DNA of 6,252 nt from a virus (taxonomy: Duplodnaviria; Heunggongvirae; Uroviricota; Caudoviricetes). Both the position numbers and the translations under genes were made by a program. Below the pieces are notes generated by a model. That model saw only the letters and a list, made by a program, of their open reading frames with translations, ran no database searches and was not told where the DNA came from. This document shows, one piece after another, positions 1,659 to 6,252 of this stretch. Location of the stretch: IMG/VR virus record IMGVR_UViG_2778261645_000001. One strand, 5' to 3'. Numbering within the stretch: the stretch's first letter is position 1; the number at the start of each line of letters is the position of its first letter.

Positions 1659-2366
1659 TTAAATCACTTTGCTGTATTTCTGAGGAACCTTCAGTAGCTG
1701 TTCAATGTCACCTTGCAGGGCAACCTTTTTCTGTGCCTCGTATTCGGCTATCAAAGATTTCATGCTATCAAGTTCTTTTTTAAGCTTTTGCTTTAACTTA
1801 TCCAGTTTACCGGAATAATGCTTAGTCAAATTAGCTTCAGCTAACTGAAGAATCTCTTCATCTGTTTTATCACTCATCAGAATAAATTGACCAGAACCCC
1901 TTAATGCTTGTCTGACATCAATTAACCGGAACCCTTCAGGGATACTTTGAAGAACTTTAGGAACGTCTTCAATCGCTGTACCAAAACCATCATTAAAGTT
2001 TCCTTCATAATAGATAAATGGGTTTGACTTAATCTCGTAAGCAATATCATATTCTGAAGGTTTCGAGGTTTCTTCGAAGTTCTTAACATTGTCGTAAGCA
2101 ATATCAAGTCGAATACGCTGTTCTTTTAACTGTGGGTAATATTCACGCTCAAGATTAAATAGTGCTTCACCCTTGCAGATATCTGGCATTTCTTGAGGCT
2201 CAGGAGACACAAAGGTAATTTGCTTCGGTGACATTCGGATTTCTTGCTCAAGTGCAATTCTTTCATCATGTTCTTTACGCTGAATAGTGATAGCTGGATG
2301 TTCAGTCTGTGGCGACCAGTCACCGAAGCTATCAACCTTTCTACCGCTAATATATAGATTTTCCAT
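1659..2366 (-). CDS. Hypothetical protein (235 aa from the preferred ATG), charged, with a Lys/Glu-rich probably helical C-terminus
   Basis: ORF track gives 1659..2411 with a GTG start. The internal ATG at 2366-2364 (MENLYISGRK...) is preceded by GAAGAGGAAAA about 5-8 nt upstream. Long uninterrupted frame. The nested 61-aa and 81-aa ORFs in other frames are treated as artefacts. Confidence 0.7.
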   Translation of the reverse strand: MENLYISGRKVDSFGDWSPQTEHPAITIQRKEHDERIALEQEIRMSPKQITFVSPEPQEMPDICKGEALFNLEREYYPQLKEQRIRLDIAYDNVKNFEETSKPSEYDIAYEIKSNPFIYYEGNFNDGFGTAIEDVPKVLQSIPEGFRLIDVRQALRGSGQFILMSDKTDEEILQLAEANLTKHYSGKLDKLKQKLKKELDSMKSLIAEYEAQKKVALQGDIEQLLKVPQKYSKVI

Positions 2367-2846: not shown

Positions 2847-3176
2847 TTAATGCACCACCTTCGAATCCGTCACCAAAATATTGTCAGCGTACAAAATTGC
2901 TATAGCTGCCTTGAGATATCTTTCAGGGCTAATGCTGTATTTGTTCGTTTGCTCGATAACCAATCTTTTCATGTTGCTGTCTTTAATTGGTAGCATCATT
3001 CGAGGCTCGTTAAACTCCACCGAGTGAATAAAGTCAGAGATGTTTTCTGCATTATCAGCCATCAAAGCTAACAGCCTGTCAAAGTCAATGCTAATACCTG
3101 CATCAATGAAGCTTTGCACCATCATAGCAGTGTCGGTATCAATAAAAATCTGTAGTGGGAAGTTTAATTCTCTCAT
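2847..3176 (-). CDS. Hypothetical acidic protein (109 aa)
   Basis: ATG at 3176-3174 with a strong Shine-Dalgarno AAGGAG about 9 nt upstream (minus-strand context AAAAGGAGATTTTAAGAAATG). Clean ORF. No recognisable domain. Confidence 0.7.
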   Translation of the reverse strand: MRELNFPLQIFIDTDTAMMVQSFIDAGISIDFDRLLALMADNAENISDFIHSVEFNEPRMMLPIKDSNMKRLVIEQTNKYSISPERYLKAAIAILYADNILVTDSKVVH

Positions 3177-3197: not shown

Positions 3198-3318
3198 CAG
3201 ACCTCCTCAATCGCTCTGTAACGAGCTAAACAGTCTTTTTCAGGGGTAGCCTGTAGGGGTGTGCCACATACCCTAAAATAAGATAGTTTTTTGCGTTAGA
3301 ATGCGATTGAGAGCGTCT
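3198..3318. repeat. Copy 1 of a two-copy ~100-120 bp element with conserved inverted termini (repeat A)
   Basis: Shares a ~46-bp left block (cagacctcYtcaatcgctctgtaacgagYtaaac...cagg) and a ~30-bp right block (ttttttgYgtYagaatgcgattgagagcgtct) with 5125-5222; the centre differs. The outer 16 bp of the two blocks are imperfect inverted complements (13 of 16). It lies in the 169-bp spacer between the 69-aa and 109-aa genes. Confidence 0.6.
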
Positions 3319-3345
3319 GAGAGTGGGTAAAACCGTTTTTTGCCT

Positions 3346-3555
3346 TTAGTCTGAGACTATTAACCCCATCTCACTATGAAATTGACTAAACCAGCTTTTT
3401 GTTACTGAGGTTTTTAGTGTGAAAGATGGGGATTGCATAATCAGATAGATGCCATCATTATCAATGTCGCCCCATCCACTATGTACATCAATTAGATTTC
3501 GAAAATATTTAAAGGCTTTGTCTGTTTTAAGTTTGAGGGTGAATACTTTCTTCAT
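3346..3555 (-). CDS. Hypothetical protein (69 aa)
   Basis: ORF track gives 3346..3567 with a TTG start. The ATG at 3555-3553 has GGGGGAAAGA immediately upstream and forms an ATGA start/stop overlap with the upstream 76-aa gene, indicating translational coupling. Confidence 0.55.
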   Translation of the reverse strand: MKKVFTLKLKTDKAFKYFRNLIDVHSGWGDIDNDGIYLIMQSPSFTLKTSVTKSWFSQFHSEMGLIVSD

Positions 3556-3782
3556 TCTTTCCCCCAATTCTTAATGAGTTCATAGGCCCGTTTAAATTGA
3601 GTCGGGTCACTATAATCAAGCTCGATATCCAGTGACTTTAATTCATAGCGTAACTGCTCAATTTGATGTGGCTTTAGTCTTTTCTTGTTACGGTCAAGCG
3701 TAACATCTTCATATTCTTTTGAGCGGGTATCTTGCCTGATTAGATGTGATGCCAGTCTATAAAATTTGTATCTACATAGCAT
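3552..3782 (-). CDS. Hypothetical small basic protein (76 aa)
   Basis: ORF track gives 3552..3815 with a TTG start. The ATG at 3782-3780 is preceded by a consensus Shine-Dalgarno AGGAGG with a 5-nt spacer, and overlaps the stop of the upstream gene by one base (TAATG). Confidence 0.65.
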   Translation of the reverse strand: MLCRYKFYRLASHLIRQDTRSKEYEDVTLDRNKKRLKPHQIEQLRYELKSLDIELDYSDPTQFKRAYELIKNWGKE

Positions 3783-4054
3783 TAAACCTCCTGTAGCAAA
3801 TTGTTTGGGTGGCAATTTCTCTTATTACCATCCCTGAAGATAATCTTTTTAGTTGCCTGAACTTCATGATGCAAAAACCAGATGACATACTTCACATAAT
3901 AATCACGAGTGCCATAACGAATCATTGGATTACCGTAAGCATCATCTCTTGTCTTAACCTCTCCGCCATCAATCCATTCAAGCATTCCTGTTTCGTAATT
4001 AATCATGAAGTAAGTTGCAAAGAACCGTTTAATATCATCTCGCCATTGCTTCAT
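3782..4054 (-). CDS. Small HNH_3-like (phage HNH endonuclease-like) protein, 90 aa, possibly catalytically degenerate
   Basis: ATG at 4054-4052 with GGAGGT about 7 nt upstream. The C-terminal stretch YYVKYVIWFLHHEV...IIFRDGNKRNCHPNNL resembles the HNH_3 signature (h-H-x-D-G-N-K-x-N-N-x-x-x-N-L), but Arg replaces the His that normally precedes DGN. The protein ends right after NNL. Confidence 0.45.
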   Translation of the reverse strand: MKQWRDDIKRFFATYFMINYETGMLEWIDGGEVKTRDDAYGNPMIRYGTRDYYVKYVIWFLHHEVQATKKIIFRDGNKRNCHPNNLLQEV

Positions 4055-4056
4055 AA

Positions 4057-4335
4057 TCAGACCTCCAGAGACAGCTTGCGAATCTTGATGCTCAATAGAC
4101 GGGCAATATCAATTTTAAAGCTGTTAAGTCCCTTCAAAGTATCTAAAGCGTCCTGAGTAATTCGGATGTGTTTACGACCTTTAGAAACTGGATATTTAAG
4201 TAAATCCGACTCAGTGACCTCTTTAGCAATTGCAAGCTGCATAACAGTCTGATGAGGCAAGCTACTAGCTCGTTTAATTCTGGTAAGCTCGTTAAAAGCT
4301 TCCTCTGAAATACGGGTTAATGTGTGTTTATTCAT
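4057..4335 (-). CDS. Putative ribbon-helix-helix (Arc/CopG-like) DNA-binding protein, 92 aa
   Basis: ATG at 4335-4333 directly abuts the stop of the upstream gene (TAAATG), with AGAGGAA about 7 nt upstream. The N-terminus HTLTRISEEAFNELTRIKRASSLPHQTVMQLAIAK fits a beta-strand, helix, helix RHH pattern. Assignment is by pattern only. Confidence 0.4.
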   Translation of the reverse strand: MNKHTLTRISEEAFNELTRIKRASSLPHQTVMQLAIAKEVTESDLLKYPVSKGRKHIRITQDALDTLKGLNSFKIDIARLLSIKIRKLSLEV

Positions 4336-4893
4336 TTAAAATTCCTCTGTAACTAAATACGGGTCAAACTCGAAATCTGGTTGCTCGTTTTCCATTGGCT
4401 CAATATTCCCAACGGCAATATGATGTTCAACAATACCAATTAGCTTTGCACACATTACAGCAAGCAATGCACAATAGGCATCGGTTGGTAATTCGTAGCT
4501 AAGTCTGGTTGCTTGTCGCTGAAGATGATTTGTCACGGTAGCTGAGTTAATTTCATCAAGGTTCTTTAGAAGATAAAATAGTTTTTTGTTGTATTTCGGG
4601 TGGCCTTCACTTCTACAGAATCCAATGAAAATATCATCAAGCTTACTTGGTAGTTGCTCGTAGCTGTCGAAGTTAGCCAAATAATTTTTGATGCTGTTCT
4701 TTGTTGTTTTGCGTACTGACATATAACGACTCCTCGGTGTAATTGCCCGAATTACTTCGTCAATGCCTTTGCGTTCTGCTCTGGTGAATTTGGGTACTTC
4801 GTGGCTGGTGGGGGAGTTTGTGTAAGCGTAGGAGTTGTGCTTGTTGCGTTCTCTCGATGCCTGAAGCATCGCTCTAAATTCTCTGTCGTTCAT
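4336..4893 (-). CDS. Hypothetical protein (185 aa), promoter-proximal first gene of the small-gene operon
   Basis: ATG at 4893-4891 with AAGGA about 12 nt upstream. It sits about 45 bp downstream of the -10 of a near-consensus promoter. Acidic C-terminal tail (ENEQPDFEFDPYLVTEEF). No domain recognised. Confidence 0.7.
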   Translation of the reverse strand: MNDREFRAMLQASRERNKHNSYAYTNSPTSHEVPKFTRAERKGIDEVIRAITPRSRYMSVRKTTKNSIKNYLANFDSYEQLPSKLDDIFIGFCRSEGHPKYNKKLFYLLKNLDEINSATVTNHLQRQATRLSYELPTDAYCALLAVMCAKLIGIVEHHIAVGNIEPMENEQPDFEFDPYLVTEEF

Positions 4894-4942
4894 TCATAAG
4901 CCAGTCCTTATAATTGTTAATTCTCTGTTAACCATATATACA

Positions 4943-4971
4943 ATACTAGCAGTTTCAAAGACTAATGTCAA
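4943..4971 (-). promoter_or_regulatory. Near-consensus sigma70 promoter for the leftward small-gene operon
   Basis: On the minus strand: -35 TTGACA (revcomp of 4966-4971), a 17-bp spacer, -10 TAGTAT (revcomp of 4943-4948). Correctly placed upstream of the 185-aa gene start at 4893. Confidence 0.6.
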
Positions 4972-4978
4972 GCATTTT

Positions 4979-5008
4979 TTAACATTTCATTAACATCTGT
5001 GGTATAAT
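4979..5008 (+). promoter_or_regulatory. Rightward promoter with extended -10, divergent from the operon promoter
   Basis: -35 TTAACA (4979-4984), an 18-bp spacer, extended -10 TGgTATAAT (5000-5008). Back to back with the leftward promoter; the two -35 elements are 7 bp apart. Confidence 0.5.
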
Positions 5009-5124
5009 GGTTCTATGGGGAGAGTAAAATATAAAGGCGTGGCTATGAGGTTTATTCGATAGGGGTTGGTACAAGCCCAACTAACCGAATCAACTATGTA
5101 TGTCACATGGTATTGCATTGCACA

Positions 5125-5222
5125 CAGACCTCTTCAATCGCTCTGTAACGAGTTAAACGGCCTCTTCAGGTCAACTCATAAGGTCAGGTACTTTTTTGTG
5201 TCAGAATGCGATTGAGAGCGTC
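5125..5222. repeat. Copy 2 of repeat A
   Basis: Same conserved left and right blocks as 3198-3318, with a shorter, divergent centre. Lies about 115 bp downstream of the rightward promoter; its right block ends about 5 nt before the AGGA ribosome-binding site of the 5238 ORF. Confidence 0.6.
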
Positions 5223-5237
5223 TTACAAGGAAAACTA

Positions 5238-5414
5238 ATGGTAAATCTCCCTCCTGAACTGGGGTCACCTGATGTATGGGCTGGTGGAGGTATTGGCCTT
5301 ATTTCAGGTCTGCTGCTTCGTTACGTCCTTGTCAGAGTGCTTGTTGTCTTTAAACTGTTCGGTCGTACATGGACGCTTGACCTTAAGGATAATGACCACA
5401 CAGACCCCCGCTAA
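5238..5414 (+). CDS. Candidate small hydrophobic (single-transmembrane) peptide, 58 aa
   Basis: ATG at 5238 preceded by AGGA with a 7-nt spacer. Product MVNLPPELGSPDVWAGGGIGLISGLLLRYVLVRVLVVFKLFGRTWTLDLKDNDHTDPR has one hydrophobic segment of about 23 residues. ORF track reports it as 5196..5414 from a TTG start. Local GC is higher than the surrounding cargo. A weak CCCC/GGGG hairpin (5429-5452) follows the stop. Confidence 0.3.
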   Translation: MVNLPPELGSPDVWAGGGIGLISGLLLRYVLVRVLVVFKLFGRTWTLDLKDNDHTDPR

Positions 5415-5489
5415 ACCCCCTCCAAAACCCCCTGTACGAGATGGTATAGGGGCATCTTTAGCATTTTGTGCTATCTATTAAAAAATAGC

Positions 5490-5534: not shown

Positions 5535-5724
5535 ACAGTAATTTCTAAAAGTTCTTATTTTTCAATAAGTTGTAATTAGCCATATATAGAGAACTGACAA
5601 GTCTCTTCACAGAGAACTCTGTAACCTTAACAGTAATTTCTAAAAATGCTTATTTTTCAATAAGTTGTAATCACCCAATATAATAGCTGTTCAGCTTCTT
5701 CACAGGGAAACTTCAGAGGCCTTC
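5535..5724. repeat. Two tandem ~95-bp direct repeats (repeat B), each with a CTTATT-N4-AATAAG hairpin
   Basis: Units start at 5535 and 5630. The first 42 bp are 40/42 identical (acagtaatttctaaaaNtNcttatttttcaataagttgtaat); the remainder is recognisably related but diverged. Embedded inverted repeats at 5554-5569 and 5649-5664. Unit 2 contains a perfect TATAAT at 5679-5684. Confidence 0.65.
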
Positions 5725-5985: not shown

Positions 5986-6192
5986 TTAGCTCAACCTTTG
6001 AACAATCTTGTAAGTGGTGCTTAGAGGCATTCTTAGCGATTCTGCGATGCTCTTGATGGGTTGCCCTTGGTCATACATTTTAATCAACCTGTCAAGCGTC
6101 TGTGCATCGTGTATATGAGGTCTTCCACGTAAACCACCCCTATTAACCACGGCAAGTAAAAGCATTGTGTCACCACAATAGATTGTCTGGGT
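5986..6192 (-). pseudogene. 3' fragment (68 codons plus stop) of a small serine recombinase (resolvase/invertase family), truncated at the IS boundary
   Basis: The minus-strand frame open from 6192 to the stop at 5988-5986 translates to TQTIYCGDTMLLLAVVNRGGLRGRPHIHDAQTLDRLIKMYDQGQPIKSIAESLRMPLSTTYKIVQRLS. The GRP followed by ...G-x-x-I-x-x-I-A-x-x-L-x-x-x-x-S/T-T-x-Y-K pattern matches the C-terminal HTH of resolvases such as gamma-delta, Hin and Gin. The catalytic N-terminal part would have lain where the IS now sits. Not in the ORF track because it has no in-window start. Confidence 0.55.
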
Positions 6193-6252
6193 TGAACCGC
6201 CCCGGAAATCCTGGAGACTAAACTCCCTGAGAAAGAGGTAAACAGGATGACT
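6193..6252 (+). mobile_element. Left terminus (IRL) of a second IS629-like element, including the orfA ribosome-binding site and start codon (ATG 6247-6249)
   Basis: TGAACCGCCCCGGAAATCCTGGAGACTAAACTCCCTGAGAAAGAGGTAAACAGGATGACT matches my recollection of the IS629 left end and orfA start (MT...), with one or two differences. It is the inverted complement of 36-60. Same orientation as the copy at the window start. Confidence 0.75.

Follow-up and report, generated by a model that had tools for sequence, protein, structure and literature searches.

Our computational analysis of a 6,252-nucleotide (nt) stretch of viral DNA (IMG/VR record IMGVR_UViG_2778261645_000001, Caudoviricetes; here called the window) revealed that two copies of a non-coding palindromic element, at 3198-3318 and 5125-5223, belong to a family of modules with hairpin-forming potential that is carried by integrative islands of Escherichia. 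Both copies stand directly ahead of a small gene, and the modules are better conserved than the sequences that flank them. As a tentative explanation, to which we give rather less than even confidence, the modules may be cis-acting hairpins of messenger RNA (mRNA) placed just upstream of a ribosome-binding site, with their conservation also making them crossover points. The family appears to be undescribed: when the arm sequences were sought in the literature, an unrelated primer was the sole match, and of 4,227 Rfam models none matched the window at E <= 1 or the element in one complete island (L001) or two plasmids. This agrees with an earlier description of the DNA from its letters alone (the sequence-only reading), which had recognised no known family.

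The island is found in about 1 in 10 complete E. coli genomes, and nearly all of its genes lack an assigned function. The modules are its most conserved sequences, mark its recombination points and lie ahead of two interesting genes. Knowing the function of the hairpin would open the regulation and the modular evolution of the island to study, and would explain the occurrence of one of its blocks beside plasmid Xer sites. Should the modules be without function, they would present a clear case of palindromic repeats whose family is restricted to a mobile element instead of a chromosome.

Two copies of the module in the window

A repeat search of the window recovered two blocks common to both copies, a left end block of 42 nt (3198-3239 and 5125-5166, 88% identity) and a right end block of 45 nt (3274-3318 and 5179-5223, 84% identity), which match between the copies at E = 1e-9 and 2e-8. 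The same search showed the terminal 16-nt inverted repeat (AGACCTCCTCAATCGC / GCGATTGAGAGCGTCT) to be complementary at 13/16 positions, and by pairwise alignment the centres of the two copies are unrelated and differ in length by 22 nt. At least one stop interrupts each of the six frames of either copy. The sequence-only reading, which had described a two-copy, non-coding element with shared ends, inverted termini and a variable centre, was thus accurate in these respects; of its coordinates for copy 2 the start (5125) stands, and the end, given as 5222, should read 5223.

Copy 1 (3198-3318), delimited by repeat search, alignment and folding, is an imperfect palindrome of 121 nt that we assign to type A, subtype A1. 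Repeat search and folding define its left arm (AGACCTCCTCAATCGCTCTGTAACG, 3199-3223); its right arm (GCGTTAGAATGCGATTGAGAGCGTCT, 3292-3318), which is preceded by a run of T, has the widest distribution of all blocks in the family; and folding places an apical hairpin, GGGTGTG-CCA-CATACCC, at 3255-3275. Copy 2 (5125-5223, plus strand) measures 99 nt and represents type B. The orientation in which copy 1 can be aligned with copy 2, here referred to as the sense orientation, is the plus strand, antisense to the minus-strand operon that surrounds copy 1. The arm motifs are confined to the two copies, with 4 matches in the window against 0.24 expected from dinucleotide shuffles. A 15-mer at 1963-1977 (ACGTCTTCAATCGCT), inside a gene for a 235-amino-acid (aa) protein, equals the left arm of copy 2 at 14/15 positions, which may be chance or a relic.

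The placement of the copies relative to genes was also confirmed. Copy 1 ends 21 nt ahead of the ATG (3176) of the minus-strand gene for a 109-aa acidic protein (2847-3176), a hypervariable gene immediately downstream of it in the sense of transcription. Copy 2 lies in the 5' leader of a 58-aa open reading frame (ORF) for a hydrophobic membrane peptide (5238-5414, plus strand), co-directional with its transcription, and ends 14 nt ahead of the ATG (5238). Substitutions in this ORF between islands are mostly synonymous. A strong sigma-70-like promoter upstream of copy 2 (4979-5008, plus strand; TTAACA-18-TATAAT with TG, 11/12) would transcribe copy 2 together with the 58-aa ORF.

A module family carried by Escherichia islands

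The DNA between the ends of the window is derived from a ~11-kilobase (kb) chromosomal island that occurs in 526 of 5,426 complete E. coli genomes, O157:H7 and O111 among them, and also in E. albertii. From the islands and other sources 104 copies of the module were extracted, 67 of them distinct, with lengths of ~100-130 bp and at least four types. Type A occupies the position of copy 1 and is divided into two subtypes by its apical hairpin, type B occupies the position of copy 2, type C lies in the long non-coding region past the methylase gene, always inverted relative to A and B, and type D was found in ~220-kb viral contigs. Type C is absent from the window because the insertion sequence (IS) IS629 cut off that part of the island. 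Paralogues are ~70% identical to each other and number at most three per island, whereas orthologues at one position are 95-100% identical.

Copy 1-like sequences are present in 421 and copy 2-like sequences in 406 of the complete E. coli genomes, among which no copy was found outside the islands, apart from plasmid matches to the right block. When the right-arm 19-mer was sought in one genome per species, only E. albertii was returned, besides chance matches and small contigs with a right block of the plasmid type. Pattern scans of metagenomic and viral contigs yielded 77 and 10 loci, respectively, and a hidden Markov model of the family found no further copies in the islands. The element is therefore not a private two-copy repeat, the outcome that the sequence-only reading had named as its own refutation; homologous copies run into the hundreds. 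In type D the left arm (AGACGCTCTCAATCGC) and the right arm of A and B are reverse complements at 16/16 positions, which makes a perfect 16-mer the probable ancestral form of the termini. The jumbo phage EJP2 also carries a 24-nt piece of the right block, with a terminator on one side and an early promoter on the other.

Predicted folding and stem variation

As had been proposed from the termini, either strand of both copies is predicted to close a long stem. The minimum free energy (MFE) of copy 1 RNA is -45.6 (plus) and -44.9 (minus) kcal/mol, with z of -5.3 and -5.9 against shuffles, and that of copy 2 is -33.0 and -30.6 kcal/mol, with z of -4.0 and -3.4. Long rods are obtained throughout the family (MFE -44.7 kcal/mol for type C and -34.4 kcal/mol for type D; z of -2.2 to -5.9 across all types), type C from a divergent island gives the same fold, and DNA parameters reproduce the rod shapes of both window copies. 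In a modelled leader of 255 nt copy 2 would form an independent domain. For a candidate RNase III processing site, an irregular double-stranded stem of about two helical turns would be expected; the stem predicted here comprises 4+3+8 bp plus an inner helix on both strands.

Differences between types leave the hairpin in place. Subtype A2 exchanges the apical hairpin of A1 for GTGG-TATTAC-CCAC at the identical place. Type C lacks the TCAATCGC box (TCAATC), and its right arm is GCGTTACAGAGC, whose pairing partner is GCTCTGTAGCG in a shifted register; the pairing partners have changed and the stem still forms, hence the hairpin is what is kept. One consensus structure for types A-D was sought and rejected, as the pairing register varies by type and no single structure fits them all.

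Within types, variants at paired positions of the sense strand were of the G-U type at 17 sites (50 sequences) and of the A-C type at 12 sites (17 sequences), with a binomial p-value of 0.46 for the site counts and a Mann-Whitney p-value of 0.046 for the frequencies. One full compensation was found (U-A to C-G via U-G), and consensus folding gave the better energy for the sense strand (type B, -27.6 vs -14.8). The expectation that differences between homologous copies would preserve the stem is thus upheld in part: most stem changes are G-U-compatible, but only one pair is truly compensatory. These comparisons of sequence and predicted fold favour a single-stranded, hairpin-forming role of the module, without proving it. 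A scan of the window for GC-rich hairpins followed by a U-tract revealed no terminator-like site at either copy on either strand, and no convincing promoter or terminator flanks any copy. A role of the element as promoter or terminator, which was considered as well, is unsupported by these scans.

The arms are conserved in sequence far beyond the needs of pairing, around a centre that is free in sequence and length, and this would also suit a site recognised at the level of DNA, in which CGCTCT-type boxes ~10 bp apart in inverted pairs would be bound by a protein of the island or the host. Orientation that varies by position (A and B vs C) is what a dyad-symmetric site would permit, the islands encode a resolvase-type helix-turn-helix (HTH) or a small serine recombinase beside non-coding regions, and the right block occurs in the accessory, protein-binding region of a plasmid Xer site. 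However, no arm-like box is present in the promoter/operator region or elsewhere in the window outside the copies, and the shifted register of type C keeps the hairpin and not the spacing of the boxes. The ARG-box position matches just 8/18 by inspection, and no match resembling IHF, LexA or hix/res sites was seen by eye, without a formal scan. We consider a protein site unlikely; its candidate binders would be the conserved 92-aa protein of the island, the resolvase-type HTH fused to the methylase or recombinase, or a host factor, acting in regulation, replication, packaging or recombination.

Conservation and the mosaic junction at copy 1

The nucleotide diversity of type A is 0.007-0.03, that of its apical hairpin 0.14, and that of both coding flanks 0.3-0.47. 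Types B and C likewise show low diversity relative to their flanks, with a smaller contrast than at A. By type, the modules are ~95-100% conserved, whereas the identity of neighbouring proteins drops to 24-60%. Among 47 loci, the gene of the 109-aa protein forms 16 clusters (90% nucleotide identity), with amino-acid identities of 24-90%. Most related loci were fetched by a pattern derived from the element and the sample is biased accordingly; in loci fetched via the 185-aa protein of the island instead, the elements are 91-97% identical and the neighbouring proteins 24-87%. In one divergent island (L126), in which identity of the 109-aa protein is down to 24%, the intergenic position of type A is occupied by a module with 93% identity to type C.

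Across type A, 16 left-flank clusters are freely combined with 4 right-flank clusters, and at the right end of copy 1 (3300-3350) the number of related loci that align falls from ~74 to 14. The free combination of flanks and the drop in coverage identify type A as a recombination joint beside a hypervariable gene. Islands without type A carry at its position a distinct conserved structured element of ~138 nt, here designated A' (L001 9046-9182, L143 11908-12044, and also L146), which bears a marginal resemblance, in the opposite orientation, to the right half of A.

In mosaic phages, conserved linker or boundary sequences have been described at module junctions, with nuclease genes at the boundaries of exchange (PMC10055350). 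Similarly, type A is a short conserved non-coding patch exactly at the breakpoint, and an HNH endonuclease gene adjoins it in many islands. Unlike the boundaries of mosaic phages, the module is a 120-bp palindrome with paralogues in the same island, and types B and C are not beside a nuclease gene.

Presence and absence of copy 2

Among 50 sampled alleles of the type B site, 31 are filled and 19 are empty, the latter in two forms, CACACAG-GAAATTTA-ATGG (8 alleles) and CACACAG-AAGGTACATTGA-ATGG (11 alleles). By comparison of filled and empty alleles, the segment of the window that empty alleles lack comprises 102 bp (5128-5229). Relative to the first empty form, filled alleles contain exactly one additional segment of 101-103 bp, and the ambiguity of the junction is only 2 nt (AG). 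This comparison showed no target-site duplication at B, and no flank repeat was seen at A, C or D. The islands display every combination of A or A', B or empty, and C. In islands of O111 and O157:H7 strains, IS1203/IS629 was found in or beside element B or the small ORF (L142 5736-7094 and L149 8218-9431); in L142 the insertion truncates the left arm of B.

Correia elements of Neisseria, ERIC/IRU and the REPIN-type doublets of REP are imperfect palindromes of ~100-150 bp with conserved arms and a freer centre. They reside in transcribed intergenic or leader DNA, form long mRNA hairpins in either orientation and vary in presence between strains. The island modules fall into the same size class of imperfect palindromes and are likewise predicted to lie in transcribed intergenic or leader DNA; they share with these elements the conserved arms around a freer centre, the predicted long hairpin in either orientation and the variable presence. 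In contrast to those elements, they are not dispersed over the chromosome but are found in one island family and a few plasmids and phages, they number at most three per island as position-specific paralogues ~70% alike, and they have no TA or other target duplication and no RAYT or transposase partner that we could find. No sequence relationship was detected, the families being compared by description.

The clean polymorphism of copy 2 speaks for a second explanation, that the modules are selfish palindromic DNA resembling miniature inverted-repeat transposable elements (MITEs), or relics thereof, copied among islands, plasmids and phages, with their conservation reflecting recent spread. Terminal inverted repeats that were probably a perfect 16-mer ancestrally, the size of 100-130 bp and near-100% identity amid diverged flanks agree with it, as do the C-type copy at the A position in L126 and the range of unrelated contexts (three island positions, 220-kb viral contigs, ColE2-like plasmids and the EJP2 fragment). 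On the other hand, nothing beyond the 2-nt AG ambiguity at B resembles a target-site duplication at any copy, paralogues at ~70% against orthologues at 95-100% are the opposite of an active burst, and copies are few within islands and, besides plasmid matches to the right block, missing from the rest of the 5,426 genomes. No transposase with matching ends was seen among the BLAST matches, for which arms of 16-25 nt are by themselves too short. The lack of target duplications and of dispersed identical copies weakens this explanation, and we regard it as rather doubtful. The count of copies and the search for duplications that had been suggested earlier thus gave many copies, in islands, plasmids and viral contigs, but no duplication. 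Of the three alternatives offered by the sequence-only reading (structured RNA, MITE-like element, protein-binding site), the evidence picks none cleanly, with the MITE weakened and covariation thin.

A possible role of the hairpin in cis

According to the explanation that we tentatively prefer, the modules, which are built into ~11-kb Escherichia integrative islands together with a large serine recombinase, tape-measure and baseplate genes, a small-gene operon, a small membrane peptide and long non-coding regions, would each be transcribed within an mRNA, copy 2 in the leader of the 58-aa ORF and copy 1 as an intercistronic spacer of the minus-strand operon. The RNA of the module would fold into a self-contained rod hairpin that ends 14-21 nt ahead of the start codon, facing the Shine-Dalgarno sequence, and would act in cis on the transcript, like the intercistronic hairpins of phage operons. 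It could thereby provide a site for processing of the RNase III type, stabilise the transcript or insulate the translation start that follows. Since a palindrome folds either way, the module could work in both orientations, and since it is near-invariant while the flanking genes diverge, it may serve as a homology patch for the exchange of island modules. The analysis itself shows the family, its fold potential, positions and conservation, the mosaic junction and the polymorphism, from which we infer transcription through copy 1, an effect on the RNA in cis and the enzyme acting on the hairpin.

Hairpins cleaved by RNase III are found between genes and in leaders of phage operons, for instance the R sites of T7 and the N-leader and sib of lambda. 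The modules resemble these sites in being paralogous irregular hairpins just upstream of translation starts. They differ from them in that their rods are longer (100-120 nt, with a branched tip), that they occur in both orientations and that one copy is dispensable.

Several observations weigh against a role of the hairpin in cis. Copy 2 is absent from 19/50 sampled alleles and can thus be dispensed with. Covariation is thin, amounting to the one compensatory pair, and the asymmetry between strands is marginal. The loops and unpaired positions are near-invariant, beyond the needs of a simple hairpin, as would be expected just as well from recent spread or from a sequence-specific partner. The better-folding sense strand of copy 1 is antisense to the operon, and the sense strand of type B is the transcribed one; owing to this mismatch at copy 1, orientation gives no consistent signal. 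Finally, the retrieval of loci by pattern inflates the apparent conservation at 22 of ~120 positions.

A broader possibility, which we hold to be distinctly unlikely, is that the modules have a function within satellite-like islands of a hitherto undescribed family, either as joints for the swapping of cassettes or as components of an RNA immunity circuit. If they were joints, the cassettes swapped there would include the hypervariable 109-aa gene and the optional leader insert of the membrane peptide. If they formed a circuit, the inverted type C would yield an antisense partner for type A in the operon mRNA. Either would represent a new regulatory or recombinational device, with its right block in common with ColE2-like plasmids and large phages.

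The right block and plasmid Xer sites

The right block (TTTTTTGYGTYAGAAWGCGATTGAGAGCGTYT) is ~90% identical over 34-39 nt to a sequence in small mobilisable ColE2-like plasmids (e.g., pSCU-106-6), where it stands directly upstream of a clear cer-like core, GGTACGTACAA-GGGGAG-TTATGGTAAAT, with an ARG-box-like sequence ~110 bp upstream. In shuffle tests against the ColE2-like plasmid the right block gave z of 10-14 for types A, B and D, and the left half of the element showed no significant similarity to the plasmid Xer site. No type is similar to ColE1 cer or Rcd (z of -0.1 to 1.6). Homology of the whole element to cer/Rcd, as suggested by a MAFFT alignment, was rejected, as shuffles leave the right block only, against the ColE2-like plasmid and not ColE1. 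The plasmid copy of the right block does not lie in a rod (z -0.3). Thus the modules have the right block in common with the Xer region of ColE2-like plasmids, and, unlike cer/Rcd, they have neither an ARG box nor a Pcer-like promoter, and types A and C have no Xer core. Integron attC sites, which have terminal R''/R' core sites (RYYYAAC / GTTRRRY) and an integron integrase nearby, were considered as well and rejected: the termini are AGAC.../...GTCT, GTTAGAA is internal only, and no tyrosine recombinase was found in the islands. The sequence-only reading had missed this cer-like shared block, together with type C, the conservation against diverged flanks, the mosaic junction at copy 1 and the presence or absence of copy 2.

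Beside copy 2 a cer-core-like string, GCGTCTTACAA-GGAAAAC-TAATGGTAAAT, was found at 5216-5246 (plus strand), so that copy 2 with its right flank might be a degenerate or variant Xer site of the cer type, with the element as its accessory sequence. A cer-type site was defined by a XerD arm TTATGGTAAAT and a XerC arm like GGTGCGTACAA, 6-8 bp apart. The string has a XerD-like arm matching at 10/11 positions and a spacer of 7 bp; TACAAGG and TAATGGTAAAT come after copy 2 at a compatible spacing, and over 39 nt its right block agrees at 90% (z = 13) with the block directly upstream of the plasmid core. Yet the XerC-like arm matches at 7/11 positions and lacks GGT, and an ARG box is missing. The XerD-like string coincides with the beginning of the 58-aa ORF and is also kept in empty alleles, for which reason the core was downgraded. 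Moreover, copy 1 and type C have no Xer core, similarity to ColE1 cer is lacking, and the islands integrate with a serine recombinase. We consider an Xer site highly improbable.

A role of the module RNA in trans was also weighed, with type C transcripts being antisense to type A in the operon mRNA, in the style of P4/P1 immunity, or with the modules being released as Rcd-like stem-loops. Types C and A are ~70-75% identical, including the centre, and have opposite orientations, and a weak promoter-like site lies inside type C. ColE1 Rcd is likewise one long stem-loop closed by its ends (PMC5935869), and our folding of the ColE1 Rcd region agrees with this. The right block abuts the Xer core in ColE2-like plasmids, where the 3' part of Rcd is inferred in ColE1 cer. 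Against a role in trans stand the lack of convincing flanking promoters and terminators and the insignificant similarity to ColE1 cer/Rcd. Rcd is a single stem-loop with its own Pcer-type promoter (15-bp spacer) and a U-tract end; of these features the stem-loop is present, but there is no promoter directly upstream and no hairpin with a U-tract. Variants of C and A do not co-vary within islands (by inspection), islands occur with any combination of A, B and C, and the Rfam families of the C4/CI type were unmatched. A trans-acting RNA is very unlikely in our estimation.

The island and other features of the window

The ends of the window are those of IS629/IS1203 (1-60 and 6193-6252), with inverted repeats at 36-60 and 6193-6217. 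Two IS copies bracket the fragment; the left one truncates the tape-measure gene, the right one the HTH-methylase/recombinase gene, of which only a 59-aa ORF (5986-6165) is left. The 6.1 kb between the IS ends are ~90% identical to part of the island. In the complete islands used to establish gene order (L001, L002, L143 and L149), a large serine recombinase, 'baseplate' and tape-measure genes, two small genes and a non-coding gap are followed by the 109-aa gene, the small-gene set (often with the HNH endonuclease) and the 92-aa and 185-aa genes. A divergent promoter region comes next, with the 58-aa gene on the opposite strand and a non-coding stretch with 48-nt direct repeats. The island ends with a methyltransferase carrying a resolvase-type HTH, or a small serine recombinase, and a second long non-coding region. 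In L001 the ORF-free ~1.7 kb at the island end (12332-14000) hold the inverted type C, with no annotated gene and no Rfam match. Identity of the island with SpLE2 of O157 Sakai was ruled out, SpLE2 being CP4-44-like, and the Hfq-CRAC table of small RNAs of Tree et al. is consequently uninformative here.

Among the island proteins, Pfam and PHROGs recognise only the tape-measure and HNH domains; searches of NCBIfam, PADLOC and PDB sequences gave nothing useful, the PDB search being empty, and no transposase domain was found with Pfam, NCBIfam or PHROGs. RefSeq homologues of the 235-aa protein (1659-2366, minus strand) are labelled 'transposase', a label (RefSeq/PGAP) that has no support from Pfam, NCBIfam or PHROGs, and PADLOC returned a single weak match to the candidate defence protein PDC-M63B (E = 2e-4). 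No transfer or transfer-messenger RNA was detected by ARAGORN. In the non-coding gap at 2412-2846, a near-consensus minus-strand promoter (TTGACA-17-CATAAT with TG, within 2697-2756) is directly followed by a terminator-like hairpin (2721-2697), and the two could either yield a transcript of very small size or form an attenuator in front of the 235-aa gene.

In the predicted leader of the 58-aa mRNA, the 5' end (GGGGAGAG, 5017-5024) pairs with CUCCCUCC (5246-5253), just past the start codon, and a hairpin follows the stop codon at ~5428-5452. With its strong promoter, 5' pairing and 3' hairpin, the predicted layout of this mRNA resembles that of type I toxin mRNAs. The non-coding stretch after the small ORF carries two 48-nt direct repeats (5535-5582 and 5630-5677), 92% identical to each other and 95 bp apart, which are well conserved between islands (identity 0.93-0.95); they are iteron-like and may mark a replication origin. 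The Chi sequence GCTGGTGG occurs three times in the window, always on the plus strand (729-736, 4804-4811 and 5280-5287), compared with 0.09 occurrences expected by chance.

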